In this document: positions 926-32,119 of the stretch, piece by piece
Position numbering within the stretch: position 1 is the first letter of the stretch
How the letters are laid out: every line of letters begins with the position of its first letter
Assembly (NCBI GenBank): GCA_945923475.1
Contig: CAMELE010000001.1
Location: forward strand, 1-35,874
DNA from: an uncultured Mollicutes bacterium
GTDB taxonomy: Bacteria; Bacillota_I; Bacilli_A; Acholeplasmatales; Anaeroplasmataceae
DNA: 35,874 nucleotides
Reading direction: 5' to 3'
Notes under the pieces: model-generated
The model's database searches: none
Told to the model about the DNA's origin: nothing
The model's input: the letters and a program-made list of their open reading frames with translations, nothing else
Program-made: the position numbers and the translations under genes

Positions 926-1207
926 AAATATATTTCTTATAATCTTTAATAAAACGCCAATAATCTTCTCGATTTTATTTTGAGGGTTTTAATTAGGTTA
1001 ACCCACAACCTCCGATAGTGTGTCTACTGGACCAAGGAAATACCCGATCGCCGTATTTCGCTCTTTAAAAGATGGACGCTTCTAATCCTACTTCCTATCG
1101 TATAAAAGGACTTATCAATGACTTTTATACATATTGCCTTTATTACCTTTATAAACAAATTAGCATTACCCAGTGCTACCGCGAGGAGGTTTTGTTTTTA
1201 GCACCGC

Positions 1208-1294
1208 AGCCCCGCTGGGATTCGAACCCAGAACGACTCCTTCAAAGGGAAAACGGTTTTAGAGACCGCCGTGTTAACCGTTACACTACGGGGC
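1208..1294 (-). tRNA. amber suppressor tRNA (anticodon CTA, reads UAG); class-II-like long variable arm
   Basis: Reverse complement gives D-arm TAGTGTAACGGTTAACAC, anticodon stem GCGGT/ACCGT, loop CTCTAAA (U33, anticodon CUA, A37), ~20-nt variable region, T-arm CTGGG-TTCGAAT-CCCAG. Acceptor GCCCCGT/GCGGGGC carries a 1-nt register irregularity. Confidence 0.75.
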
Positions 1295-1299
1295 AATAA

Positions 1300-2055
1300 T
1301 TATATTAAATCCCACTCTTCATCAGAATAAGAATTAATATCTCTTTTTGTTGAGGGAAGACTATATCCTCTACACCATTTACGGATAGTGTTATCATTAA
1401 CTCCAAACTTTTTACCTAAAGAAGTAAAAGTCTATCCACGAATTAAATTTTTTAATTCATTTCTATCTGGTCGAGCTACTTTTCTATCTTTTAAATGATT
1501 ACAAGCACTACAACGAATACTTTTGTTATCAGATAATTCTTTTCCACAATCACAACAGTATCGTTTTTTTCTACGGTTATTTCTTAAAGGATAAGTATAT
1601 CCTTCTAATCGACGACTTTTACCGTGATTTATTGTAGAAATAACATCTTGCCCTACATTAAACTATTTTGCTATATTTCCTTGAGAAATATTAGAATTTT
1701 GTAATAAATCATAAATCTCTAATAATTGTTGTTTAGAAATTTTAGACTAACTATTACAATTATTTTGTCCACCAGTTGTTTCATTATAACCATTAAAATA
1801 AGTATCAAATAACTAAATATAATACTTTTCCTTTTGGTCTAATTCTTTTTGAGAACATTCTTCTAAAATCTCCCAAGTAAAACTATCTAATCCATATTTT
1901 CTAAAAGCTCTACATAAAGTTTTTTCATATTCTTCAGAATTAGGATTAAATGCTCTGCTTTTTTCTTTAGTCCATCTATTTTCAATATTGATAGACTATC
2001 CAATATAAGAATGATTATTTACTTTATTTGTAATTTTATAAATTCCACAACTCAT
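1300..2055 (-). CDS. GIY-YIG homing endonuclease (I-TevI-like, C-terminal zinc finger plus HTH), 251 aa, with five in-frame TAG codons
   Basis: Manual minus-strand translation: MSCGIYKITNKVNNHSYIG*SINIENRW...RYCCDCGKELSDNKSIRCSACNHL...GVNDNTIRKWCRGYSLP. One TAG falls in the canonical YIG-Q-S motif. 756 nt, an exact multiple of 3, ends TAA. Absent from the standard-code ORF track. Confidence 0.8.
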
Positions 2056-2142
2056 TAAACTACCTTCTTTCTTTTTCTATTATATATAAAAATTAAAAGA
2101 AGATAATAATAAAGATTCGACCTCGAAATTGAATTTTTTTAT

Positions 2143-2265
2143 TAATTCAACTTACGGAGTTTTCGCTTCATCTTATTAATGAGGCGCTGATTCATAACTT
2201 CACTATGGGAATACAACTTCGCAATGCGATTTTCATAATGCTCTTTAGTGCGATAAATCATAATT
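2143..2265 (-). CDS. small hypothetical protein (40 aa, basic)
   Basis: AAGGAG RBS 8 nt before the ATG. Followed on the minus strand by the inverted repeat TTGAATT...AATTCAA plus T-run, terminator-like, at ~2100-2140. Confidence 0.35.
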
Positions 2266-2390
2266 TTTCTCCTTAAATTGAATTTATGATCCAGAGAGGG
2301 TTATCTGCGTCATCTAGACCCAATTTTTATTCATTATATATTCTTTCAGAGTAGCAAATTCTTAATTAAATATATAACTTAGCAGAACTC

Positions 2391-2490
2391 TGGTGGCACG
2401 GCCGGCTGGACTCGAACCAGCAGATGCAGGAGTCAGGGCTCAAAAGTTGGACTTGCACCAACATTCTCGGTTTTATAGGACCGGAAGCCT
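2391..2490 (-). tRNA. tRNA-like element: T-arm GCTGG-TTCGAGT-CCAGC and acceptor 3' strand + CCA are clear; 5' half not confidently folded (possible Leu-CAA-like loop); may be degenerate
   Basis: Reverse complement ends ...GCTGGTTCGAGTCCAGCCGGCCGTGCCACCA. No complementary 5' acceptor strand found upstream even allowing G-U pairs. Confidence 0.3.
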
Positions 2491-2840
2491 ACTAACAGAA
2501 CTTATATAATACTACTTAACCCCGTCATATTATATAACCCATTTAACTGATTTTGAGAAAGTCCTGTGCCTTACCATTTTGGCGACGGCCGTATAAACAA
2601 GACACCAAAGAATTTCAATCAATTCATTTCATCTATTTGTCGATTAATTCTCTCTTACCCCAAACAGACTACACCTTCAACAGGCAATCAAAAATTATTT
2701 GTAAAACAATATCTCTGTATCTTCTGTTATAGAAAATTCGCAGTTTGTGGTGTCTTTGATATATTTAAGACGCGAACGCCGTGCTCAACCATTACACTAA
2801 TTACAGCTGATTATTGGAATCGAACCAATCCTGCGTTCGG

Positions 2841-2916
2841 TGGTACGGGATGAGGGACTCGAACCCACGACCTCCTGAATGTAAATCAGATGCGCTACCA
2901 GCTGCGCTAATCCCGT
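2841..2916 (-). tRNA. tRNA-Val (anticodon TAC), CCA encoded
   Basis: Acceptor ACGGGAT/ATCCCGT, D-arm GCGC-AGCTGGTA-GCGC, anticodon stem TCTGA/TCAGG with loop TTTACAT, T-arm GTGGG-TTCGAGT-CCCTC (U50-U64), A73 + CCA. Confidence 0.8.
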
Positions 2917-3469: not shown

Positions 3470-3982
3470 TTATTTCAAAGGCTCTAATTTAAACTCTTCG
3501 GTTAAACGATATAAATGTAAAGAAATTTTACGATGACAATTAGGACACAAAATACATAAATTATTTGGATCATTATTGTCATGGTTTTCATCTTTATGAT
3601 GAACTTCTAAAATGCGTTTTTCTTCATCATAGCCGCATACAGCACATTTATGTTCATATAAATCAAAAGCAGTTTGACGATAATTATTTCCTTTAAAAGC
3701 AAAATGATTTTCGCCACTTTTAAATAAGGTATTATTCATACCATTAGCACAACTTCTACTACAATAAACATTTCCAGTAATAGAACGCTTTAATTCTGAA
3801 TTTCTTTTCCAAACTTCTTTTCCACAATTCGCACAATGACATAATGTGCTTCCTTTATGACTGCGACATTCAGATGAACAATAAAATGCTGAATTCTCTT
3901 TTAATTTAGCATTATATCGCTTTAATTCAATCTCATATTCTTTATTACATACTACACATTTCACTTTTACCATTGTCGGCAT
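3470..3982 (-). CDS. HNH homing endonuclease, standard code, about 170 aa
   Basis: ORF track 3470..4045. HNH motif EVHHKDENHDNNDPNNLCILCPNCH plus several CxxC zinc-finger pairs. Start refined to the ATG preceded by AAAGGAG (MPTMVKVKC...); ATGs at 4000 or 4045 are alternatives. Confidence 0.8.
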   Translation of the reverse strand: MPTMVKVKCVVCNKEYEIELKRYNAKLKENSAFYCSSECRSHKGSTLCHCANCGKEVWKRNSELKRSITGNVYCSRSCANGMNNTLFKSGENHFAFKGNNYRQTAFDLYEHKCAVCGYDEEKRILEVHHKDENHDNNDPNNLCILCPNCHRKISLHLYRLTEEFKLEPLK

Positions 3983-4096
3983 ATAACCAACTCCTTTCAT
4001 TATTATATGAAAGTTAGGTAAGAATGATTGTTCTCGAAAGACCAAAATCTGTCCAAAAGATTATGTGAACCCGATCTAGCGATCGAGCGATCGCAA

Positions 4097-4575: not shown

Positions 4576-5433
4576 TTAAGTAGTTAAAAACGCATTATAA
4601 CCTTTTGATTTTAAATCATTAATTACTTTTATAGCATTTGCTTTGACAGAAAAAGCACCAACTTGAACTTTATAATACTTGCCAATCTTACGAATATAAG
4701 CATTTTTATAACCTGCTCCAATAGTATCAGGTAATGCTTTAATTTTCAATAAGAAAGCGTCAGCATTAGATTTAGATCCAAAAGCACCAAGTTGAACGCG
4801 ATAAATAATTTGCGGTTTAAGGTAAATAGCCACTACATTATCGACAGCGCGATTGCCCCAATCTTTAGTGATACAAGCTCCATTATGAAGAACTTTCGTG
4901 CTACCACCGCCATCAAGGTTAATTGCATAATCAACTTTTAATGCTAAAAGTAAATTCTACATTTCTGTAAATGCCATGCCTGGCTTTTCAATAGCAATTA
5001 AATAAATATTAAATTTATTATATGCTAATACCGTTCTACGAGCTTTATAATTTAACTCTTTGGCATAAGTAATTTGAGTTTTTTTGCCAGCCTTAATTAA
5101 TACTGGATAACCGCTAACAAAATCTTCAAACTTTTCTGTTCCAATTATACCGTATTTCAATTCACCATTAATGATACCAAAGCCTTCTTTATAAGAAGAA
5201 GTGGAATTAATGATTATACCATTATCCATATAATTAAAACAAGTGCTGCCATTATCCATGCTAAAGAAACCACCATTAGTTAAAATAGTAGGTTTAACCG
5301 CGCAACTATCATAGTATTGCTTTAAAGTCTAACGCGGTTGAGCGCATAAGGCCATATCTAACTTACTAATTTCTTCTTTTGGAATTTCAATAATTTTTAC
5401 ATATGAATAATTGCTTGGAGAATATATCTTCAT
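4576..5433 (-). CDS. phosphodiester-glycosidase-like (DUF2233-type) protein with two C-terminal SPOR-like peptidoglycan-binding repeats; 285 aa with two in-frame TAG codons
   Basis: With TAG as sense, track ORFs 4957..5259 and 4576..4833 join upstream sequence into one 858-nt frame. Hallmarks: ILTNGGFF and NLDGGGST (DUF2233-like), YRVQLGAFGSKSNA and YKVQVGAFSVKANA (SPOR-like). ATG at 5433 after AAGGAAGG. Confidence 0.65.
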
Positions 5434-6780: not shown

Positions 6781-7920
6781 TTAATAAAGATACTGTTCAA
6801 TAGTATTTGCGACCTTAGTTAAAACAACAGACTTAATCACGCGCTCATTTTTAGCCTTTTCGATAGCTTCCTTACGCTTTTCTACATTGCTGATCGTCCA
6901 AAAGTCATCAGGATCAATGTAAATTTCAACCTTTTTCGGATCGGCCGTAATCATACCCTTTTCAATCTTAATTGAATCAGGAGTCAAGGCATAACGAATA
7001 GTCTTACTATCTGAGGCATAACCATCATACCATCTTTTATGATCGGCATTAGGATTGCTAAACAAATTAACTGAAACACCATAGGTATTATACACATCAC
7101 CATTTACCGTAGTAATAGTGATATTGAAACGAACATTGGAAGTTTGAGAAATATTAAGATCTTCAAGAGTTTCTGCCACACCATAACCCTGATTAAGTTC
7201 AAAAGCAATCGCGCGAAGATAATCATAAGTCATATTGGTAGTACGAGAAAAATTCACAATATCCTTAATACCACTCGCATATTTAGGCTTAACCTTATCA
7301 GTAAGATATTCTACAATCTCTTCCTCTGTTGGATAAGTAATCTTAAAATGATAATGAAAACGACCAGGCCGATTCAATAGATAAGTGCTAAGTCGATCAA
7401 CTTCATTACAAGTAATAACGAAAAGCTTCTTACCATTATCAAGACCATCAAAAAGAGAAAGCATTTCCTCCTGCGGAGAGGGGCCCGCATGGTCGTCAGA
7501 GTTATTAGAGAAATTCTTTTCAAACTCATCAAAAATAATTACGACTTCTTGCTCGATACTGGAAATAAAATCTGCGATACCGGGCACATAAGTATTAGCC
7601 AAGAGAACAGGATATCCGCTTTCAATAGCGTGATGAGAAAGAATACGAGCAAACAATGACTTGCCAATACCCTTCTGACCACTTAAAATAACACCAAGAT
7701 TACGGTCTGAATACTTAAAAGAATTAAGCACCTTATTGACTTTAACTTCGTGATTACCATAAATTTTTTCCTCATTGACCGCAAGGTCTGGACGAGAAGA
7801 AAGATAAAAACCTGCCATTTTATTAAAGCAGATTTCAAAAGACATAAGCGGAAGTCGCTTATAAGTCTTAACGTCCTCGCCATAAATCTGATAGCGAGAA
7901 CCAGCATTTACAATATTCAT
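6781..7920 (-). CDS. AAA+ family ATPase, about 379 aa
   Basis: Walker A GQKGIGKS, Walker B VVIIFDEFE. Start refined to MNIVNAG, preceded by AAGAGGA. The longer track ORF start overlaps tRNA-Ser. Confidence 0.8.
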   Translation of the reverse strand: MNIVNAGSRYQIYGEDVKTYKRLPLMSFEICFNKMAGFYLSSRPDLAVNEEKIYGNHEVKVNKVLNSFKYSDRNLGVILSGQKGIGKSLFARILSHHAIESGYPVLLANTYVPGIADFISSIEQEVVIIFDEFEKNFSNNSDDHAGPSPQEEMLSLFDGLDNGKKLFVITCNEVDRLSTYLLNRPGRFHYHFKITYPTEEEIVEYLTDKVKPKYASGIKDIVNFSRTTNMTYDYLRAIAFELNQGYGVAETLEDLNISQTSNVRFNITITTVNGDVYNTYGVSVNLFSNPNADHKRWYDGYASDSKTIRYALTPDSIKIEKGMITADPKKVEIYIDPDDFWTISNVEKRKEAIEKAKNERVIKSVVLTKVANTIEQYLY

Positions 7921-7947
7921 ACTTAATCCTCTTAATTTAAAATTTAA

Positions 7948-8035
7948 TGGCGGAGCCACCGCGAGTCGAACGCGGACTACCTATAAAGGTAGGAAAGCTT
8001 AGCAGGCTTTTGTGATACCATTACACCATAGCTCC
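7948..8035 (-). tRNA. tRNA-Ser (anticodon GCT), class II, G73 + CCA encoded
   Basis: Acceptor GGAGCTA/TGGCTCC. Anticodon stem AAAGC/GCTTT with loop CTGCTAA. Long variable arm CCTACC...GGTAG. T-arm CCGCG-TTCGACT-CGCGG. Confidence 0.8.
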
Positions 8036-9370: not shown

Positions 9371-10012
9371 TTAAATATATTTCCAGATATAACCATAAGC
9401 AGATTTTCGTTTACCATTCGCGCATTCTGCTATATGACTTCTAACTCCAGAACTATAATTTAAACATTTTTTATTTTTATAACACCACTATCCAGCTTCA
9501 GCTACTGATTCAAATGAATTAAGTAAATCTCCATTTTTATCATATTGTTTAATTGCTTTAGATTTTTCTTTTCTTAAATTTTCATTCGCTCGATTAATTA
9601 TCTAAATACAATTTTCTTTTGCTATTGAATAAACTAAATCTAGACTACAATGAAATAGTTCAGCTATTTCTATTGGACGAGGATTTATTTTTAATGCTTT
9701 TAAAATTTCTTTATGGTCATAAATTAATTTGCCATCGCCACCTTTAGTAGCATTATATCCATTCTAATAAGCATTTAATTTTTCAATCCAATAAATTTCT
9801 CTTTCTTCTGGATCGTCAGTCTCTTCAATTAGCTCAATATGAAAATGTTCTACTCCATATTTTCGCATTGCCGAATATAATGGACGTTTTTCATTGCGCT
9901 CTCTAAAAGCATCTTTACAATGTTCTTTAAAACGCTTCTCAATAAAAAACTCAGTTTTTCCAATATAAATTTTCTAATTTACATCATTGATAATTTTATA
10001 AATATATGCCAT
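9371..10012 (-). CDS. GIY-YIG homing endonuclease, 213 aa, with five in-frame TAG codons
   Basis: Minus-strand translation MAYIYKIINDVN*KIYIGKTEFFIEKRFKEHC...YWIEKLNAY*NGYNATKGGDG.... 642 nt, an exact multiple of 3, ends TAA. Invisible in the standard-code ORF track. Confidence 0.8.
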
Positions 10013-10146
10013 ATTCTTATCATCCTCCATTATTTTATGGAGTTTTTGGTTGCTAAATTATCTAAACGCAACCAAAATTTTAGTCCCACCGTTAGTTTAA
10101 ACAGAGCATACCATCGTGAAGGTGTGTGGTGACATTTTATGCTCCT

Positions 10147-12912: not shown

Positions 12913-12983
12913 GTCCGGAAAATGGATTTGAACCATTAACTTAATCTTGAAGGATTATGACCTAACCTTTAGTCTATTCTGGA
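12913..12983 (-). tRNA. tRNA-like element with a 6-nt anticodon loop (CTTCAA; would read UCA if a 7th nucleotide is recruited); possibly a pseudogene
   Basis: Acceptor TCCAGAA/TTCCGGA (one A-C mismatch), D-arm GACT-AAAGGTTA-GGTC, stem TAATC/GATTA, T-arm AATGG-TTCAAAT-CCATT. Confidence 0.3.
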
Positions 12984-13379: not shown

Positions 13380-14810
13380 TTAACTAAAATTATGTATAAA
13401 GTCTTTTAAAGACCTAAAATTATTAACTTTTTCTTCATCAGCATCTCTAAAACACCAAGGACACAAATACATATCAGTTCCTTTATGATAGTGAATATCC
13501 TCTGTATAATATAAATTATTACAACATTCGCATCGTTTACAATAAGTATCCGCACAACTATCGCAAACTAATTCATTCTCATCGCCTACGGAATTTGCTT
13601 CATCAAGGATTATACGAGAACCGCAACAAGCACAATAACCATAATTATCGTCTTCGTTTACTCCATAATTGAATTCACAGTCTCCACATCGCATATATTC
13701 TCCACTTTCGATAATAGTTTTACCGCATTGTAAACAAGGGACATCACCGCCAATAGACCAATGAGGAAGATCAGTCTCTAATGGATAATAATACAATTTT
13801 AAACTATAAATGGGTAAATAGCAAGAAGAATAAAGCAAATCATTATATTGAAGAGTATGCTCGCCAATATCTTCAACAATATCACCAATAGGATATAAAC
13901 GAGATAAAATAGGAATCCATGTCTCGGATAATCCAATAGTTTCTTCGTCAAAAGAAGTAGTGCTCATCCTATTAGAAACAGTATTAATACCTCCATCTAC
14001 CCATTCACGCAACTGAAAAGTCTTATCAAAAGTATTGATAATATCTTTAATTTTAATTAAAGCATTGGTTGTCATAAAAGGATATTGACGACCAGCCATT
14101 AAACCGCGTCGCTTATCTTCCATATAAAGAAGCATACGCCATTTCTTAGAATTCCAAAGAACATCTTCGGGGAAATGCGGAAGTTTCTGATTCTCTGCTC
14201 CGCGCAAATAGCAAATAAAAGTGCTTCTATCTACCATGTAAGACAAATTTCCTGCTCTATATTCGCCGTCAAGTGCATGGCAAGAGCGCCAATTATAAGT
14301 ATTTTCACTTACGCTTAAAAAATCCAAAGGATGAACTGAGAAACATAATGTTCCCTCGATCTTGTCCTCTTGGATAATACGACTTGCGTAATTCTGAATA
14401 TCTTCCAAAGAGCGTGGATTCTCTTCGAAATACTTAAAAGCCTTAACTAATTTCATTCCTCTTGGAATCTTTTTATCCTTATAAAAATAAGTATCTATAA
14501 CTGTATTGTTAAAGAATCCTTCTTTATTTACTGTAATAAAATCCTTTAAGTCTTCATTATTATAAGTATAATTAATTGTTTCAAGAAACTCTTCAAGACG
14601 ATGCTCTTTAGTTTTATCATCTAAGGAAAAAGATACCTTTTCCGGCCATTCATAAATTAAATGACCGTGAAAAAATTTAATTAAGTCTTTTTTGGCTTCG
14701 AGGAATCTTTCGAATAGTTCTTCTGTTTTTGGATTACTGATTCCTTGGGAGTAACTGATGACTTTGTTGAACTGTTTTCTAATGCTTTCGATGTCGAAGT
14801 CATATGACAT
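13380..14810 (-). CDS. large Cys-rich protein, paralog A (about 476 aa): conserved central domain plus C-terminal multi-CxxC zinc-ribbon region
   Basis: Shares GTLCFSVHPLDFLSVSEN...W.SC...GEYRAG...WNSKKWR with the 17318..18922 product, and a C-terminal CLQCG...CGDC...CACCG...CDSC...CKRCECC...CPWC. Start taken at MSYDFD by homology; the track ORF starts at 14831. Confidence 0.65.
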   Translation of the reverse strand: MSYDFDIESIRKQFNKVISYSQGISNPKTEELFERFLEAKKDLIKFFHGHLIYEWPEKVSFSLDDKTKEHRLEEFLETINYTYNNEDLKDFITVNKEGFFNNTVIDTYFYKDKKIPRGMKLVKAFKYFEENPRSLEDIQNYASRIIQEDKIEGTLCFSVHPLDFLSVSENTYNWRSCHALDGEYRAGNLSYMVDRSTFICYLRGAENQKLPHFPEDVLWNSKKWRMLLYMEDKRRGLMAGRQYPFMTTNALIKIKDIINTFDKTFQLREWVDGGINTVSNRMSTTSFDEETIGLSETWIPILSRLYPIGDIVEDIGEHTLQYNDLLYSSCYLPIYSLKLYYYPLETDLPHWSIGGDVPCLQCGKTIIESGEYMRCGDCEFNYGVNEDDNYGYCACCGSRIILDEANSVGDENELVCDSCADTYCKRCECCNNLYYTEDIHYHKGTDMYLCPWCFRDADEEKVNNFRSLKDFIHNFS

Positions 14811-15787
14811 TTGACTAATCCTCCAATACAATCTTTACAATACTCGCTGTGTGGGTTCGCAGGGTCAATCTCAAATGCCTCTTCACACTCCGCACACCAT
14901 TCAACATTACTGGGAATACAATCAGGACAATAAAAACATGTATGTCCATCTAATCCTTTTACTGGAAATGTTTCATATTCACTAAATAACTGACCGCATC
15001 CTCTACAATGAACGTAGAATCCATCGCCATCAGTTGGAAAATTCTTACAAATATTATCGAACCAAATACTATGATAATTACGATAATATTCAAAATTAGG
15101 AATATCTTTCTCTTTGAGCATGCGGATTACCTTATTAATCGTATCAAAAAGAGCACCCGCATTTAATGTTTCAATACGGTTATGTTCATTTTTATAACCT
15201 ACTGAAAGATTCACGCCACAAATTTTCCATTCAGGACATAAAACACTAATATCACTAAACGTGCCAAAATCCTCTACAAATCCAAAAGATTCAATGTAAT
15301 CAATGAATTTAGGATTGTAAAGATCATAAAACACACAATCATTTGTGCCTTGTCTATCCAACTGAATAATGTATTTCAGATTGGGAAATGGACACTCAAA
15401 ATATTGTAATACTAATGCTTCGGCGCCCAATCCACCAATTTCTTCATCAGTGGTAAAAATAATAGAAGGGCGCAAAGATGTATTTCTCAAAATATGAAGA
15501 ATCGCATATACTCCTGCTCTATCATCTGCGCCAAGACCATCGGGCGACCAAAGCACATTTTTTCTTGTATCATAATATAAATCTTTGACCGGTTTCTCAA
15601 ACACAGTATCAAGATGAGCCACTAAAGCAATCGGAATATCGCCAACCGCACAAACATACTCTTTAGTAATAACTACTTCAGTATATTTAGCTTTCAATAC
15701 ATCGGCAACATATTCTCTTAACTCATCTTGCGTCGAGCGAACCAGATATTCAAATAACCAAAGTTCATTAGTTTTAAAACCTCTCAC
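14681..15787 (-). CDS. M42/M28-family metallopeptidase-like protein with C-terminal zinc-ribbon extension (368 aa)
   Basis: Metal-ligand motifs AHLDTV, GADDRAG and TTDEEIGGLGA (compare M42 HMDEIG / DDR.G / QEEVGLRGA). C-terminal CRGCG...CFYCPDC...CAECE...CKDC. Its 3' end overlaps the next gene by ~130 nt. Confidence 0.7.
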   Translation of the reverse strand: MRGFKTNELWLFEYLVRSTQDELREYVADVLKAKYTEVVITKEYVCAVGDIPIALVAHLDTVFEKPVKDLYYDTRKNVLWSPDGLGADDRAGVYAILHILRNTSLRPSIIFTTDEEIGGLGAEALVLQYFECPFPNLKYIIQLDRQGTNDCVFYDLYNPKFIDYIESFGFVEDFGTFSDISVLCPEWKICGVNLSVGYKNEHNRIETLNAGALFDTINKVIRMLKEKDIPNFEYYRNYHSIWFDNICKNFPTDGDGFYVHCRGCGQLFSEYETFPVKGLDGHTCFYCPDCIPSNVEWCAECEEAFEIDPANPHSEYCKDCIGGLVKCHMTSTSKALENSSTKSSVTPKESVIQKQKNYSKDSSKPKKT

Positions 15788-17317: not shown

Positions 17318-18922
17318 TTAAAAAATCAAAGAAGGTCTTTGATTTGGGTTGGTGCCAATAGCCCAAGAAATAAATTCCTTTTCACTAATATTAAAGAGGT
17401 CTCTGCCCTTTTTAGTGAGAGTTTCTCCATCGACATAATAATTAGAGCGCCAACCATCTCTATCTTCTTCAATTTCACCATTGAAGAAGGTTTTTACTTT
17501 TTTATCCTCACAGCAATCCCAACAAATATCTGTATAGAACCCAACTGGCTTCTTCTGGAATCGAAGGCGGATTTGCTTCATGTCATCATAGTCTTTGCGG
17601 ACTCCGCAACAAGGACAAACTTCTGTGTTTTCGTCATAACAATAAGCGCAGTAAGTTCTTCCATCGACATTGTAAGTGTCATCGACATAAACAATATCAC
17701 CACACTTATCGCACTTTACTGCACCCGAACAACTTGTGCAAATGGTCATTTCTGCGTTATTCTCTCTATCATCGAGGAGAGAATCATCAAGAAGCTCTCC
17801 GCAACACATACACTCAGATTCACCCGAGTAGTTAAGATCAACGCTTTTGTCCGTAGGAATTTTAGTGGAAACGTAAGCATTATGCTCTGAGTAGATATCA
17901 TTATACATGAAATTGGTATCAAGATTGAAATAAATATTTCTGTCAAGCTCGCCAATAATGTTATTACTGTAATTATGAATCTGATTTAAATACTTGGTAT
18001 AAGGGCCAAAACCAAGATTCTGCTCAGCAAGTTTTTTAATCCAAGCAAGACAAATACTTTCAAGATTTTCATTACAATAAGGATAACCCTTAATGCCAAG
18101 GATAAGGCTTTCATCTACGATGAAAAGTTCGCGCCAACGTTTACTATTCCACATTACAGGCTTACCAGCCTTATACCAAAGTTCCATATCCTTATCAGAT
18201 TTAAGGTAAGCTTCGAGGATAATGGGAGAATTCATCATCTCAACGGTTCCCTGACGGTATTCACCACCGCCATTCTGCCATCTCATACAAGAATCCCAAC
18301 CGCAATCATTATCACTCATAGTGATATAGTCAAGAGGATGAATAGAAAGACAGAGTTCACCAGAGATATTTTTCTGATTAAGGAACTGAGAATGAGCGAT
18401 ACGGAACTTTTCATAGATATCGCGGTCAATCTCCAAGATATCACTCATCTTACCAAGCATCTTACTAAGCTTCATACCCTTATTAATCATAAGAGTTTTA
18501 TTGTTATAAGTGAATTTAAAAGATTCCCCATCATAAATGTTAGACATTAAAGGCTCAACATCCAAAAGATTTACCAGATTAAAATACTGAGTATTAGAGA
18601 TGTCTGTTTTAAGATAAAGATCTCTTACCTTATTATTAAAGGTATTTCGGAATTCATATCCATCACCATTTCTGCCGAAATAATCATAAAAATCATCACT
18701 CATATCTTCATAAGTGCGAGAATAACTTACCTTACGAGAAATGATAAGATTATCTCCCAACATTTTATAAAGACTCTGCTTATTATAGGCCCAAAAACGG
18801 AGGATGTAGTCGAGAGATGCCTTCATATCGGAACTATCTCCACCGAGGCCCGCAAAATTACGGATATACCATTCAATCTTTTCGCAATCTTCTTTGGAAA
18901 GGAGTTCAAATAAATTAGCCAT
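17318..18922 (-). CDS. large Cys-rich protein, paralog B (534 aa)
   Basis: GELCLSIHPLDYITMSDN...WDSC...GEYRQG...WNSKRWR core. C-terminal CMCCG...CTSCSGAVKCDKCG...CAYC...CPCCG...CWDCC. Confidence 0.75.
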   Translation of the reverse strand: MANLFELLSKEDCEKIEWYIRNFAGLGGDSSDMKASLDYILRFWAYNKQSLYKMLGDNLIISRKVSYSRTYEDMSDDFYDYFGRNGDGYEFRNTFNNKVRDLYLKTDISNTQYFNLVNLLDVEPLMSNIYDGESFKFTYNNKTLMINKGMKLSKMLGKMSDILEIDRDIYEKFRIAHSQFLNQKNISGELCLSIHPLDYITMSDNDCGWDSCMRWQNGGGEYRQGTVEMMNSPIILEAYLKSDKDMELWYKAGKPVMWNSKRWRELFIVDESLILGIKGYPYCNENLESICLAWIKKLAEQNLGFGPYTKYLNQIHNYSNNIIGELDRNIYFNLDTNFMYNDIYSEHNAYVSTKIPTDKSVDLNYSGESECMCCGELLDDSLLDDRENNAEMTICTSCSGAVKCDKCGDIVYVDDTYNVDGRTYCAYCYDENTEVCPCCGVRKDYDDMKQIRLRFQKKPVGFYTDICWDCCEDKKVKTFFNGEIEEDRDGWRSNYYVDGETLTKKGRDLFNISEKEFISWAIGTNPNQRPSLIF

Positions 18923-19051: not shown

Positions 19052-20413
19052 TTACTTACAAAGATTACCCATGAACATGAGCGGAAGAAGATCATCCGCG
19101 TTCTTGGAGTCCTTCATAAGGAAATACATCATCATAGGATTCTTAGAGAAATCCATGCCACCCTGACCGCTCATCATAGAGAGCATCAGCATGGTGTTCA
19201 TGTCAAACTCGCCACTATTCTCACTCATCATGAGGAAGGGGAGCATATTGCCGAACGGATTCTCCGCACTCGGCGCATTCTCAGGACTCTTCATAAAAGA
19301 ATCGAACAGAGAAACAACACGAGTATAGAAGTTAAAGTTGAAGCAATTCTTCGTAGGAAGAATCTTCTTCTCCTCACCAGCCTGCGGATCGACAACCGTA
19401 ATACCGCTATCGCCAACCTCAATTACGAACATAGCCTTGCGGTTATGAACAATAACCATGCCAGGGGCGATATCCTTGATGGCAACCGGCATCTTGTAAA
19501 GGAACTTACCGCCATCAAAGTTAAAGATATCGACGTCGATAATCTCTTTACTCTCAGGGTTGTAAGAAACCCAAGTGCCGTTCGCGTTCTTCACGGCCAA
19601 GCCATACATAGACATACGAATGTTATCAGTGGTGCAGGGGCCAAAATCAAAATTAAACGCCTTCATTTTCTTATTTCCTTTCTTATTATCAACATTATTG
19701 TTAAATGTATTTTGCTCGTTCAAAACTTTATTGATTTGATCATTAATATAATCACTATCAATCATAGCGCACTTATCTTTAATTGCGTCAATTTTGCTAC
19801 CAAGTGTAGTTGTATCAGAGGTAGAGGTAGCGAAAATTGCGTTAGAATTAATCGAAGCAACTTTTCCAGTTTCAAGACTGCAATCGCTATCAGGAACTAC
19901 CGTAATAGGTGTAGTATGTAGCTTTCCAAGAATCTTCTGGGCTTCTTCGTCGGAAATAGTATTTGCGCAAGAAAATTCTGTGTTCCATCCTGTCTTGTCA
20001 AACACTTTGGTATAATCAAGTCCATCCCAGGTCTTGCTTACATTATTATTCTTTTCAGTAGTCTTCTTATACTCGAAAAGTTTTTCAGAGCATTTATTAA
20101 CTGCATAATCATTTGTAAAAATATTACAAATATTATCAAGCAGATACTTACCAAAAGATCCATCAATGCCATCAACAAAAAAAGAATAATTCGTAAAGTA
20201 AACATCAGGGTAAATATCAAAGAAAATCTTATCATTGAGGTCAGATTTGACAACAATTCTGACCTTATTTTTAGAAGTTTTTAGTTTACGCCAAAAGACA
20301 TAATCAATCTTCTGATACTTATTATCTTGAACTGCTTGACTAAATCTATCTAAAATTTTATCAAAAATATTATGTGAGAATTCAAAAATTCCCATTACAT
20401 TAGTTCCAGCCAT
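19052..20413 (-). CDS. hypothetical protein (453 aa) with Met-rich C-terminal tail
   Basis: ORF track. GAGGAG RBS. C-terminal ...MLPFLMMSENSGEFDMNTMLMLSMMSGQGGMDFSKNPMMMYFLMKDSK.... Confidence 0.7.
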   Translation of the reverse strand: MAGTNVMGIFEFSHNIFDKILDRFSQAVQDNKYQKIDYVFWRKLKTSKNKVRIVVKSDLNDKIFFDIYPDVYFTNYSFFVDGIDGSFGKYLLDNICNIFTNDYAVNKCSEKLFEYKKTTEKNNNVSKTWDGLDYTKVFDKTGWNTEFSCANTISDEEAQKILGKLHTTPITVVPDSDCSLETGKVASINSNAIFATSTSDTTTLGSKIDAIKDKCAMIDSDYINDQINKVLNEQNTFNNNVDNKKGNKKMKAFNFDFGPCTTDNIRMSMYGLAVKNANGTWVSYNPESKEIIDVDIFNFDGGKFLYKMPVAIKDIAPGMVIVHNRKAMFVIEVGDSGITVVDPQAGEEKKILPTKNCFNFNFYTRVVSLFDSFMKSPENAPSAENPFGNMLPFLMMSENSGEFDMNTMLMLSMMSGQGGMDFSKNPMMMYFLMKDSKNADDLLPLMFMGNLCK

Positions 20414-28263: not shown

Positions 28264-29163
28264 TCACTCCTTTTGTAAATATTTATTACCAAGTAATAAG
28301 TCTAAAGTAATGTTATCACGTTCCCAATAAGGGATCCTTACTAAAGAAATATTATGAGATAAAGCATAATCATTTTTTATTTTATCTCGTTTTTGTGTAG
28401 CTTCTAATTCTCCCCAAGTAGGAACTTCCATAAAATGTTGTTCTCCGTCAAATTCAATTAATCTATTATAATCAGGTAAATAAAAGTCATATCTTAAATT
28501 ACCTAAATTTTTATATTTATATTCTTTAATATAAGTAATATTATTTTCAGATAAAATATTACTTATATGGTATTCTCCAAGAGACGTTTTTAAACAACCA
28601 CAAGAAATTTTTCTTCCACTTAATAAAGATTTACTTGAAGTATCACATTCATTACCACAATCACATCGACAATGCCAAATAATACGGTTATTTTTTCTTT
28701 CAGGTTGTTCAAATAATACAGTTAATTTACCAAAACGCTAACCAATTAAATCTTTTTTAGTTAAATTAGCTACCATTTCTTTATGTAAACACCCACAAGA
28801 CTATGTATTTCCAGTGGTTAAATCGTTAGTTGCATAATAAACAATATTACCACATTCGCATTGGCATTCCCAAATAATACGGTTATCTTTTCTTTTACCA
28901 GAATCTTTAATAACAGTTAAACGTCCAAATTTTTGGCCTACTAAATCTTTTTTGGTATTATTACTTGCTACTTCTTTCCTATAACAACCGCAAGATTTAG
29001 TGCTACCATTTCTTAACCTATTTAAACTAATACTTTTTATATTACCACAATCACACTAACATTTCCAATAAGTAGAACTATGTGTTTTAGTTTTTTCTAC
29101 ATCTATTTCTAAAGCAGTTAGACGTCCAAATTTCTAACCACTTATATCCTTATATTTTCCCAT
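28264..29163 (-). CDS. HNH-type homing endonuclease-like protein: three tandem zinc-finger modules (G-Q-[KR]-F-G-[RK]-L-T ... W-x-C-x-C-x-C-G-N ... S-C-G-C) plus a C-terminal PD-(D/E)XK-like (Vsr/DUF559-like) domain; 299 aa with four in-frame TAG codons
   Basis: Minus-strand translation MGKYKDISG*KFGRLTAL...YWKC*CDCGN...; second module DLVGQKFGRLTVI...IIWECQCECGN uses CAA at the same positions; third DLIG*RFGKLTVL...IIWHCRCDCGN. C-terminal YDFYLPDYNRLIEFDGEQHF. 900 nt, an exact multiple of 3, ends TGA. Confidence 0.75.
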
Positions 29164-31390: not shown

Positions 31391-32119
31391 TTAGTCGATA
31401 TTATTTCGATTTTTTGACGGAATTAGATCGTCAATAGTTAAATCTTCATATTGTAAATATGAGATACGAATTAATGGTATATTATGTTCTTTGCACCATT
31501 TATTTTTATATTCGTCTCTATCCTAAATTTTTTTAATGTCTTCTCCCCATCCTCCATCTGGTTCTGTATGTTGACGGCCATCATATTCTATAAGATATTT
31601 ATTATCAACATAAAAATCAAACCGCAAAGGATAGTTAGTTTCAGGATTACGACAATCTTTAAATTTTTTTTCCATTTCAAAAGGGATATTATTCTCAGTT
31701 AATAATTGAGAAATTTTTAATTCTCCAATTGAAATTTTTAAACATCCACAAGAATTTACTTTATGAGTTCGTAATTCATAAGGTCTTACGTAGACAATGT
31801 TTCCGCAATCACACTAACACTATATTTTATAAGTGCCACTTGGTGATCTATGATTAAAGTCTCTTTTTATTGCGGTTAATTTACCGAAGCGATGACCTAT
31901 AATATCATCACTTTTATGACGATTCATTCGTTCTTCTTGAATTAAACATCCGCAAGACTTACATCCGCCCGAAGTTAAAAGATTTGTATAAGCGAAATGC
32001 TCTTTACCACAATCACAACGGCATTTCCAAACAATATTACCATGTTTACGTTCAGAAGTTTCTTCTATAACAGTTAGCTTTCCAAAACGCTAACCAATTA
32101 AATTTTGTTTTTTTGCCAT
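31391..32119 (-). CDS. HNH-type homing endonuclease-like protein (paralog of 28264..29163; two zinc-finger modules plus a PD-(D/E)XK-like C-terminus), 242 aa with four in-frame TAG codons
   Basis: MAKKQNLIG*RFGKLTVI...VWKCRCDCGK...CKSCGC...IIGHRFGKLTAI...KI*C*CDCGN...NSCGCL...RFDFYVDNKYLIEYDGRQH...KKI*DRDEYK. 729 nt, an exact multiple of 3, ends TAA. Confidence 0.75.

Follow-up and report, generated by a model that had tools for sequence, protein, structure and literature searches.

An apparently functional GIY-YIG endonuclease gene with five in-frame TAG codons adjoins a two-armed suppressor tRNA(CUA) in a probable TAG-recoded phage

How can a gene interrupted by five in-frame TAG codons encode a working nuclease, and what reads these codons? 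The question is raised by an open reading frame (ORF) in a 35,874-nt stretch of DNA deposited under an uncultured Mollicutes bacterium (GenBank assembly GCA_945923475.1, contig CAMELE010000001.1, positions 1 to 35,874), here called the window. A first-pass annotation had described the ORF as a GIY-YIG homing endonuclease and had proposed that the glutamine of its catalytic motif is encoded by TAG. The reading that we favour, and to which we give roughly four chances in five, is that the ORF encodes a functional, free-standing endonuclease of the I-TevI/Seg type, that it resides in a phage in which TAG means Gln, and that its TAGs are decoded by the adjacent tRNA(CUA). The features on which this reading is based are listed in Table 1.

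Translation confirmed the extent that had been given for the ORF, as well as the motif YIG-TAG-S. The gene runs on the minus strand from an ATG at 2055..2053 to a TAA stop at 1302..1300. It contains five in-frame TAGs, no in-frame TAA or TGA and no frameshift, and its N-terminus reads MSCGIYKITNKVNNHSYIG-TAG-SINIENRW. The identity as a GIY-YIG homing endonuclease was borne out by Pfam, by profile comparison and by structure prediction. The Pfam GIY-YIG domain (PF01541) spans residues 3–91, with two of the TAGs inside it (E 2.5e-8; 34.5 bits against a cut-off of 22.6), and the family profile matched I-TevI (1mk0/1ln0) with an E-value of 1.4e-12, colinear from residue 1. An AlphaFold2 (AF2) model of the protein, with a mean predicted local distance difference test score (pLDDT) of 89, was superimposed on I-TevI 1mk0 with a template modelling (TM) score of 0.87 and a root-mean-square deviation of 1.8 Å at 30% identity. 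Residues Y6, Y17, R27, E76 and N91 are present in the endonuclease and invariant across the family alignment; in I-TevI, we take Y6, Y17, R27, E75 and N90 to be the known catalytic residues.

Downstream of the nuclease domain, the putative DNA-binding region comprises a helix-turn-helix (residues 108–143), a cluster of four cysteines (C167/C170...C182/C185) that are invariant across the family, and a second helix-turn-helix (198–230). The linker between the nuclease domain and the first helix-turn-helix was modelled with low confidence, the pLDDT being about 70 near codon 103. The region with the four cysteines and the helix-turn-helix elements presumably binds DNA. The ratio of nonsynonymous to synonymous substitution rates (dN/dS) was 0.23, 0.23, 0.17 and 0.36 against four relatives with 97, 85, 78 and 64% identity, respectively. 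The gene is intact and under selection, and not a pseudogene.

A search for homologues returned 670 database proteins at E <= 0.001. The best 120 of these each cover at least 90% of the query, mostly 100%, and all 120 have Q in the column of codon 20, the TAG that directly follows Y17-I18-G19. In the column of codon 131, Q is the commonest residue (39/120). Both counts are partly circular, since TAG had already been rendered as Q in the database proteins. In the DNA of the closest homologue, P0001 (97% identical, locus L001), all five positions are TAG. The Q residues in the database entries of P0001, P0002, P0003 and P0006 (loci L001 and L163–L170) are translated TAGs, and the DNA of these four does not reproduce the database protein under the standard table. 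Once L001 had revealed this, protein-level Q counts were dropped as sole evidence and codons were counted instead.

For the DNA-level recount, homologues were collected from bacterial and archaeal genome contigs and from viral contigs, giving 194 distinct copies that cover codon 20. Copies without any in-frame stop, which can be read with the standard code, make up 136 of the 194. In these the column holds CAA (81 copies), CAG (22), AAA or AAG (18) and other codons (15); Gln codons thus account for 103/136 (76%), with Lys second at 13%. TAG occupies the column in 33 of the distinct copies. The proposal that the first TAG falls on a conserved Gln column, and is a clean single-site indicator of the reassignment, therefore stood at the codon level as well. 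So did its placement by alignment with I-TevI, where the TAG sits in a conserved column adjoining YIG and is aligned with Ser20 (YVG-S-A). The same alignment limits two other statements of the first-pass annotation. The motif YIG-Q-S, which it called canonical, is so within the subfamily and not beyond it, and the label of a catalytic-motif Gln, correct in that the residue adjoins YIG, was overstated for a position that is Ser in I-TevI, Lys in 13% of the standard-code homologues and has no known catalytic role. Gln20 is a signature of the subfamily beside the YIG tripeptide and not a known catalytic residue.

The remaining TAGs, which had been proposed for comparison with Gln columns, were followed in a set of eight close copies, made up of the window gene and relatives of 97, 85, 78 and 64% identity. 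Codon 20 is TAG in all eight, down to 64% identity. Codon 131 is replaced by CAA in the 85% and 78% relatives and by CGA in the 64% relative, and codon 208 by CAA, AAA and GAA in the 85, 78 and 64% relatives. In the opposite direction, CAA codons 109 and 119 of the window are TAG in the 78% relative. Exchange of TAG with CAA is consequently seen in four aligned columns among the close copies (131, 208, 109 and 119). At codon 81, TAG is shared by the 97% and 85% relatives and gives way to TCA at 78% and to AAA at 64% identity. The five closest copies all have TAG at codon 103, where the 64% relative has TGT. Lying in variable columns, codons 81 and 103 are uninformative on the identity of TAG, and the comparison with Gln columns was informative for 131 and 208. 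The presence of standard-code CAA and CAG at codon 20, together with the swaps between TAG and CAA among close relatives, makes Gln a well supported meaning of TAG in this gene. Published proteomics bearing on Gln at TAG positions comes from other phages only (PMC9523058).

The tRNA(CUA) gene begins 4 nt past the stop codon of the endonuclease, on the same strand. Its product has a U1.U72 mismatch, G2-C71, G10, G73, U33 and A37. Outside the anticodon, the published identity elements for Gln are a weak 1-72 pair, G73, the 10-25 pair and the acceptor stem (PMC9976931), and the acceptor features of the window tRNA match this set. Furthermore, 28 of 29 phage tRNA(CUA) inserted Gln in cell-free tests and were reported to be substrates of the E. 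coli glutaminyl-tRNA synthetase (GlnRS) (PMC12636597). Going by these features, the window tRNA(CUA) would be charged with Gln.

This tRNA carries a hairpin in its variable region whose 7-nt loop, CUUUGAA, follows the pattern of the anticodon loop of tRNA-Gln(UUG). The tRNA of locus L003 (2801..2898) has CGCAC-CUCUGAA-GUGUG at this place, with a different stem and a loop like that of Gln(CUG). Viral contigs were then scanned for similar tRNAs. The first scan used a fixed CUA anticodon arm and T loop, required a long spacer and gave 94 loci; together with a second scan it yielded 77 distinct long tRNA(CUA). A hairpin was scored when a UYUG motif lay in a 7-nt loop with at least two closing pairs, using a motif-anchored script with shifted-register and shuffle controls. 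The design was found in 69 of the 77, and in 54 of the 62 that fit the motif-free pattern of the first scan, compared with 0 of 129 distinct Ser, Leu and Tyr tRNAs from the same loci and a mean of 1.35 (maximum 7) among shuffled variable regions. The hairpin-bearing loci are the window, L003, L172, L173 and about 90 further viral loci (L175–L309). Two matches to a family-specific DNA pattern were set aside, L171 being a chance match inside a protein gene and L174 an ordinary 71-nt tRNA.

The loop consensus is C32-U33-[C/U]34-U35-G36-A37-A38, and it is carried on 21 different stems, whose shifted registers do not pair. When the sequences were aligned with MAFFT, the two closing pairs proved to be 88% paired, and both partners of the pair had changed in 10 and 3 sequences, respectively. 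RNAalifold, run on a MAFFT alignment of 41 long tRNA(CUA), recovered the four standard helices and not the extra hairpin, because some rows of that alignment had the variable region in the wrong register. The true tRNA-Gln genes at these loci have the anticodon loops CUUUGAC, CUCUGAC, CUUUGAA and CUCUGAA, and their first base is U or A. The hairpin is followed by a linker of 5–6 nt, the last base of which covaries with base 15 (A-U 45, G-C 6), like a normal position 48. Because of this covariation, the hairpin looks like an insertion that separates the anticodon stem from a variable loop of otherwise normal form. Across the 77 long tRNA(CUA) the 1-72 pair is U-A in 25, U.U in 17 and A.C in 11, with G73 in 57 and G10 in 73. 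No description of the extra arm turned up in the literature searched, including PMC12636597 and recoding surveys, the coverage of which was incomplete, so that an earlier description is possible.

Long variable regions are also found in other phage tRNAs. Many that belong to types with a usually short arm (Thr, Lys, Trp, Ile, His, Asn, Cys and Gln) have variable regions of 13–19 nt with small hairpins of the tetraloop type and no copy of an anticodon (loci L003, L015, L083, L084, L109, L206, L225, L243, L263, L265, L266 and L305).

The endonuclease gene is part of a segment that is present in some related phages and absent from others. In a blastn comparison, window positions 1300..2141 were found to be missing from two viral contigs, L192 (161 kb) and L252 (159 kb), where they are replaced by the 5 nt GGAGT. 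Their flanks are 95–99% identical to the window, and the breakpoints fall at 2141/2142 and 1299/1300. The segment thus abuts the stop codon of a 39-codon ORF on one side and ends 4 nt short of the tRNA(CUA) gene on the other; the cassette-free junction in L192 (7913..7975) reads ...AAGTTGAATTAAGGAGTTTATTGCCCCGTAGTGTAATGG... Loci L001, L002 and L237 carry the cassette with 96–97% protein identity. The genes of more distant relatives take other positions: the one in L003 follows a related tRNA(CUA) at a distance of about 100 nt, and that in L168/L169 is flanked by tRNA-Tyr and tRNA-Gly. From these comparisons, the pattern of presence and absence is that of a free-standing homing endonuclease, and the copy in the window is a recent gain, or its absence a recent loss in the relatives. 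The source of the cassette was most likely another TAG-recoded phage. The lineage itself has long been resident in TAG-recoded phages and is adapted to the recoded code, as TAG20 persists in relatives as distant as 64% identity and Gln is written with 5 TAG, 8 CAA and no CAG. The suggestion that the gene is adapted to the recoded genome and not recently imported consequently applies to the lineage, and fails for this copy, which has been mobile recently.

Three further differences were seen around the insertion point. The D loop of the tRNA(CUA) gene (window 1279) reads AACGG in the cassette-bearing window, L001 and L237 and AATGG in the cassette-free L192 and L252, about 20 nt from the insertion point and with five alleles in all; this may be a difference in target-site immunity or mere linkage. 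A 290-nt segment between tRNA(CUA) and tRNA-Tyr is present in L001 (2182..2471), L192 (8286..8575) and L252 and missing from the window (at about 976). In L167, the stretch between the same two genes holds a tRNA-Gln(CUG) gene.

The arrangement suggests how production of the nuclease could depend on recoding. We propose that the 842-bp cassette was inserted into the tRNA array of a TAG=Gln phage, between the small ORF and the suppressor tRNA gene, and that its five TAGs would be decoded as Gln by the adjoining tRNA(CUA). With only 4 nt between the endonuclease stop codon and the tRNA gene, and both on one strand, the two are probably expressed from the same transcript. The target site of the endonuclease would lie at the 5' end of the tRNA(CUA) gene or close to it. 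With TAG in place of the invariant Gln20, standard-code translation would stop after 19 residues, so that the nuclease would be made only where the suppressor tRNA is active and its production would be delayed or restricted by the TAGs. A stop at codon 20, on an invariant residue, would be the tightest possible block. Among copies judged recoded from positions other than codon 20, this column has TAG in 26 and CAA or CAG in 9, compared with 134 TAG and 189 CAA or CAG at other Gln-type codons (odds ratio 4.1, p 2.6e-4). A gating role of TAG20 is plausible on this distribution. A similar idea has been put forward for in-frame stops in a TGA-recoded intron endonuclease, which were proposed to postpone its production (Borges et al., 10.1101/2021.08.26.457843).

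Several observations weigh against a functional TAG=Gln endonuclease served by its neighbouring tRNA. The helix-turn-helix-type Pfam matches in the DNA-binding part are weak and all under the curated cut-offs, and a search with the AF2 model found no significant structural match for this part in the PDB. The variable region of the tRNA(CUA), at 21 nt, is atypical of tRNA-Gln. With Lys at 13% in the standard-code homologues, the codon-20 column taken alone is compatible with Lys. The enrichment of TAG at codon 20 ignores shared ancestry, and many of the 26 copies may descend from one event. Finally, the TAGs may lack any regulatory role and have replaced CAG neutrally, the gene being mobile and AT-rich. 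A decaying pseudogene with the TAGs as nonsense mutations would fit the frequent decay of homing-endonuclease genes after fixation and the expectation that a gene with five internal stops in the standard code would usually be dead, but it is contradicted by the lack of TAA, TGA and frameshifts, by a dN/dS of 0.17–0.36, by a TAG kept across diverged relatives that otherwise swap TAG and CAA, by the cognate tRNA(CUA) next door and by in-frame TAGs in other genes of the window, which have no CAG; we consider its probability close to negligible. It is also very improbable that TAG is read as Tyr, Ser, Leu, Lys or pyrrolysine. The acceptor end of the tRNA (U1.U72, G2-C71, G73) is Gln-like and unlike the G1-C72/A73 of the Tyr and Leu tRNAs in the same array, and the variable hairpin with its 7-nt loop is unlike the arms of the Ser, Leu and Tyr tRNAs of these loci. 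On these two features a type II (Tyr/Ser/Leu) identity was rejected, which had been considered since the adjacent tRNA-Tyr(GUA) is likewise 90 nt long and a single mutation turns GUA into CUA. The length of the tRNA with its 21-nt variable region and the rank of Lys at codon 20 speak for another amino acid, as do published screens in which 1 of 29 phage tRNA(CUA) inserted Ala and one pair inserted Tyr (PMC12636597); the swaps among close relatives are nevertheless of TAG with CAA. The label 'tRNA-Pyl' given by ARAGORN was rejected, as it reflects the CUA anticodon only.

A stronger competitor, in our estimate a little short of an even chance, grants that TAG is Gln and denies the codons any regulatory role. 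The TAGs would have accumulated in an AT-rich mobile gene as synonymous C-to-T transitions from CAG, and TAG20 would be an inherited accident. All window genes with at least two TAGs are AT-rich and have no CAG at all, compared with 62 CAG in the TAG-free genes, as if TAG had replaced CAG wholesale; the TAGs other than codon 20 drift freely between relatives, and the test for enrichment takes no account of phylogeny. On the other hand, TAG20 was kept in all close relatives down to 64% identity while the other TAGs turned over, and large neighbours on the same strand lack TAG, so that its use differs by gene class, as reported for early and late genes (Borges et al.).

The extra arm of the tRNA raises a question of its own. 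We tentatively propose, with the odds in our view clearly on the other side, that the long tRNA(CUA) form a widespread class of phage suppressors in which the side hairpin displays a copy of the Gln anticodon loop and so lets the host enzyme charge the tRNA with Gln, and that the endonuclease rides beside this device. GlnRS depends strongly on U35 and G36 (PMC9976931), and a CUA anticodon has no G36. The loop copy on the side arm would supply the Gln anticodon determinants that CUA lacks and thereby restore recognition. The side arm is about as long as the anticodon arm and branches off from the same hinge, and it could be read in place of the anticodon or come to occupy the anticodon position in an alternative fold. 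Alternatively, the arm could bind another factor, act as a decoy or be a structural relic; a fixed loop on covarying stems disfavours the relic. If the charging proposal is true, it would answer part of the question, left open by Borges et al., of how host enzymes charge phage suppressors, and it would offer a natural design principle for engineered suppressor tRNAs.

The window as a whole has 34.8% GC and 21 tRNA genes on the minus strand between 836 and 12983, and near-identical stretches occur on viral contigs of 159–163 kb. The window thus seems to come from a large phage with a genome of about 160 kb, for which a megablast of 25 kb of the window against GenBank phages gave no match. TAGs are concentrated in few genes, which lie in AT-rich regions (27–32% GC) and are mostly endonuclease-like. 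The large minus-strand genes are free of TAG; further TAGs lie in the plus-strand genes near the right-hand end of the window. An HNH gene (3470..4045) breaks this pattern of two classes, having neither TAG nor CAG. In a set of 51 window ORFs the stop codon is TAA in 42 and TGA in 9; as the set was built with TAG as a sense codon, only its TAG-free genes are informative. TAG stops are rare in AT-rich genomes anyway.

Table 1. Positions of the endonuclease gene, the suppressor tRNA and other features in the window
Feature	Position	Strand	Basis or remark
GIY-YIG homing-endonuclease ORF	1300..2055	-	251 sense codons and TAA stop; translation, Pfam, homologues, dN/dS
N-terminal GIY-YIG nuclease domain, residues 1 to about 95	1771..2055	-	I-TevI profile match, AF2 model
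Putative DNA-binding region	1366..1734	-	Sub-threshold Pfam helix-turn-helix matches, invariant Cys, AF2 helices
TAG codon 20, directly after Y17-I18-G19	1996..1998	-	Subfamily-invariant Gln column
TAG codon 81, within GIY-YIG domain, variable column	1813..1815	-	Codon comparison
TAG codon 103, low-confidence linker, variable column	1747..1749	-	Codon comparison
TAG codon 131, first helix-turn-helix (IAK-Q-FNVG)	1663..1665	-	Codon comparison
TAG codon 208, just N-terminal of the C-terminal helix-turn-helix	1432..1434	-	Codon comparison
Amber-suppressor tRNA(CUA), 90 nt	1206..1295	-	Anticodon 1262..1260; ARAGORN, Rfam tRNA 56 bits
Variable-region hairpin UUCC-CUUUGAA-GGAG	1237..1251	-	Sequence and fold
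Mobile cassette, 842 bp	1300..2141	-	ORF and 86 nt upstream with ribosome-binding site GAAGG; blastn presence/absence
39-codon ORF	2142..2261	-	Stop codon is the upstream cassette boundary; ORF list, junction alignment
Second GIY-YIG gene, 4 TAGs	9371..10030		
Repeat-containing gene, nuclease-like C-terminus, 4 TAGs	28264..29163		
Repeat-containing gene, nuclease-like C-terminus, 4 TAGs	31391..32119		
Phosphodiester-glycosidase/SPOR gene, 2 TAGs	4576..5433		
TAG-free, CAG-using genes	6781..7959, 13380..14831, 17318..18922, 19052..20413		

Two further tRNA-related elements were seen on the minus strand. One, at about 2391..2525, is tRNA-like, with a good T arm (GCUGG-UUCGAGU-CCAGC), a 3' CCA, two further hairpins and no canonical cloverleaf. 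ARAGORN called it at a relaxed threshold only, with an 'anticodon' of four bases, a permissive Rfam search of 2100..2900 returned nothing for it, and it is conserved in the cassette-free relatives. The other, at 12913..12983, is a 71-nt tRNA with an abnormal anticodon loop ('tc'), to which ARAGORN assigned no definite type and Rfam a tRNA score of 46 bits.

Among known systems, I-TevI, the endonuclease of the T4 td intron, shares its overall layout with the window gene: the nuclease is N-terminal, the linker holds a Cys cluster, and a helix-turn-helix, which in the window protein is putative, lies at the C-terminus. Unlike I-TevI, the window gene stands free between genes and not in a group I intron, and its protein has Gln (TAG) for Ser20 and an extra, putative central helix-turn-helix. 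The closest analogue is T4 SegB, likewise a free-standing GIY-YIG gene inside a phage tRNA array, which cleaves within the tRNA region of related phages and drives the preferential inheritance of its own region (PMC2330249). The window gene differs from SegB in being written in a recoded code and in having as its neighbour the tRNA needed to translate it. The group I intron endonuclease of the TGA-recoded Agate phages (10.1101/2021.08.26.457843) is likewise rich in the reassigned stop among genes that avoid it; it lies inside an early gene, and Borges et al. split the genes into codon-avoiding and codon-using ones. This contrast is echoed in the window, where TAGs are concentrated in four endonuclease-like ORFs, although here TAG is reassigned to Gln and not TGA to Trp, and the gene is free-standing instead of intron-borne and directly adjoins the suppressor tRNA.

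The window tRNA has several features in common with the supE-type tRNA-Gln(CUA) of E. coli and the 71–79-nt phage tRNA(CUA): a CUA anticodon flanked by U33 and A37, G10, G73 and a weak 1-72 pair. Such ordinary Gln amber suppressors have a variable loop of 4–5 nt, whereas that of the window tRNA has 21 nt with a hairpin whose loop copies the Gln anticodon loop. In this respect it resembles type II tRNAs (Ser, Leu and bacterial Tyr), which also have five helices and an extra arm between the anticodon and T arms. Unlike theirs, the hairpin of the window type has a 7-nt loop, [C/U]-U-[C/U]-U-G-A-[A/G], followed by a linker of 5–6 nt.

Recoded homing endonucleases have already been reported (Borges et al.), and as an instance of known phage recoding the endonuclease described here is good but ordinary; of the two, the two-armed suppressor tRNA is the more unusual and merits follow-up. 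The gene nevertheless provides a clean, well-controlled example of TAG meaning Gln in this phage. As public protein databases contain translations with TAG as Q, protein alignments alone are circular as evidence for such a reassignment. The gene is equally an example of selfish endonuclease genes that move among recoded phages and are themselves written in the altered code, and the junction between endonuclease and suppressor tRNA is a good place to ask whether recoding times or confines the production of the nuclease.

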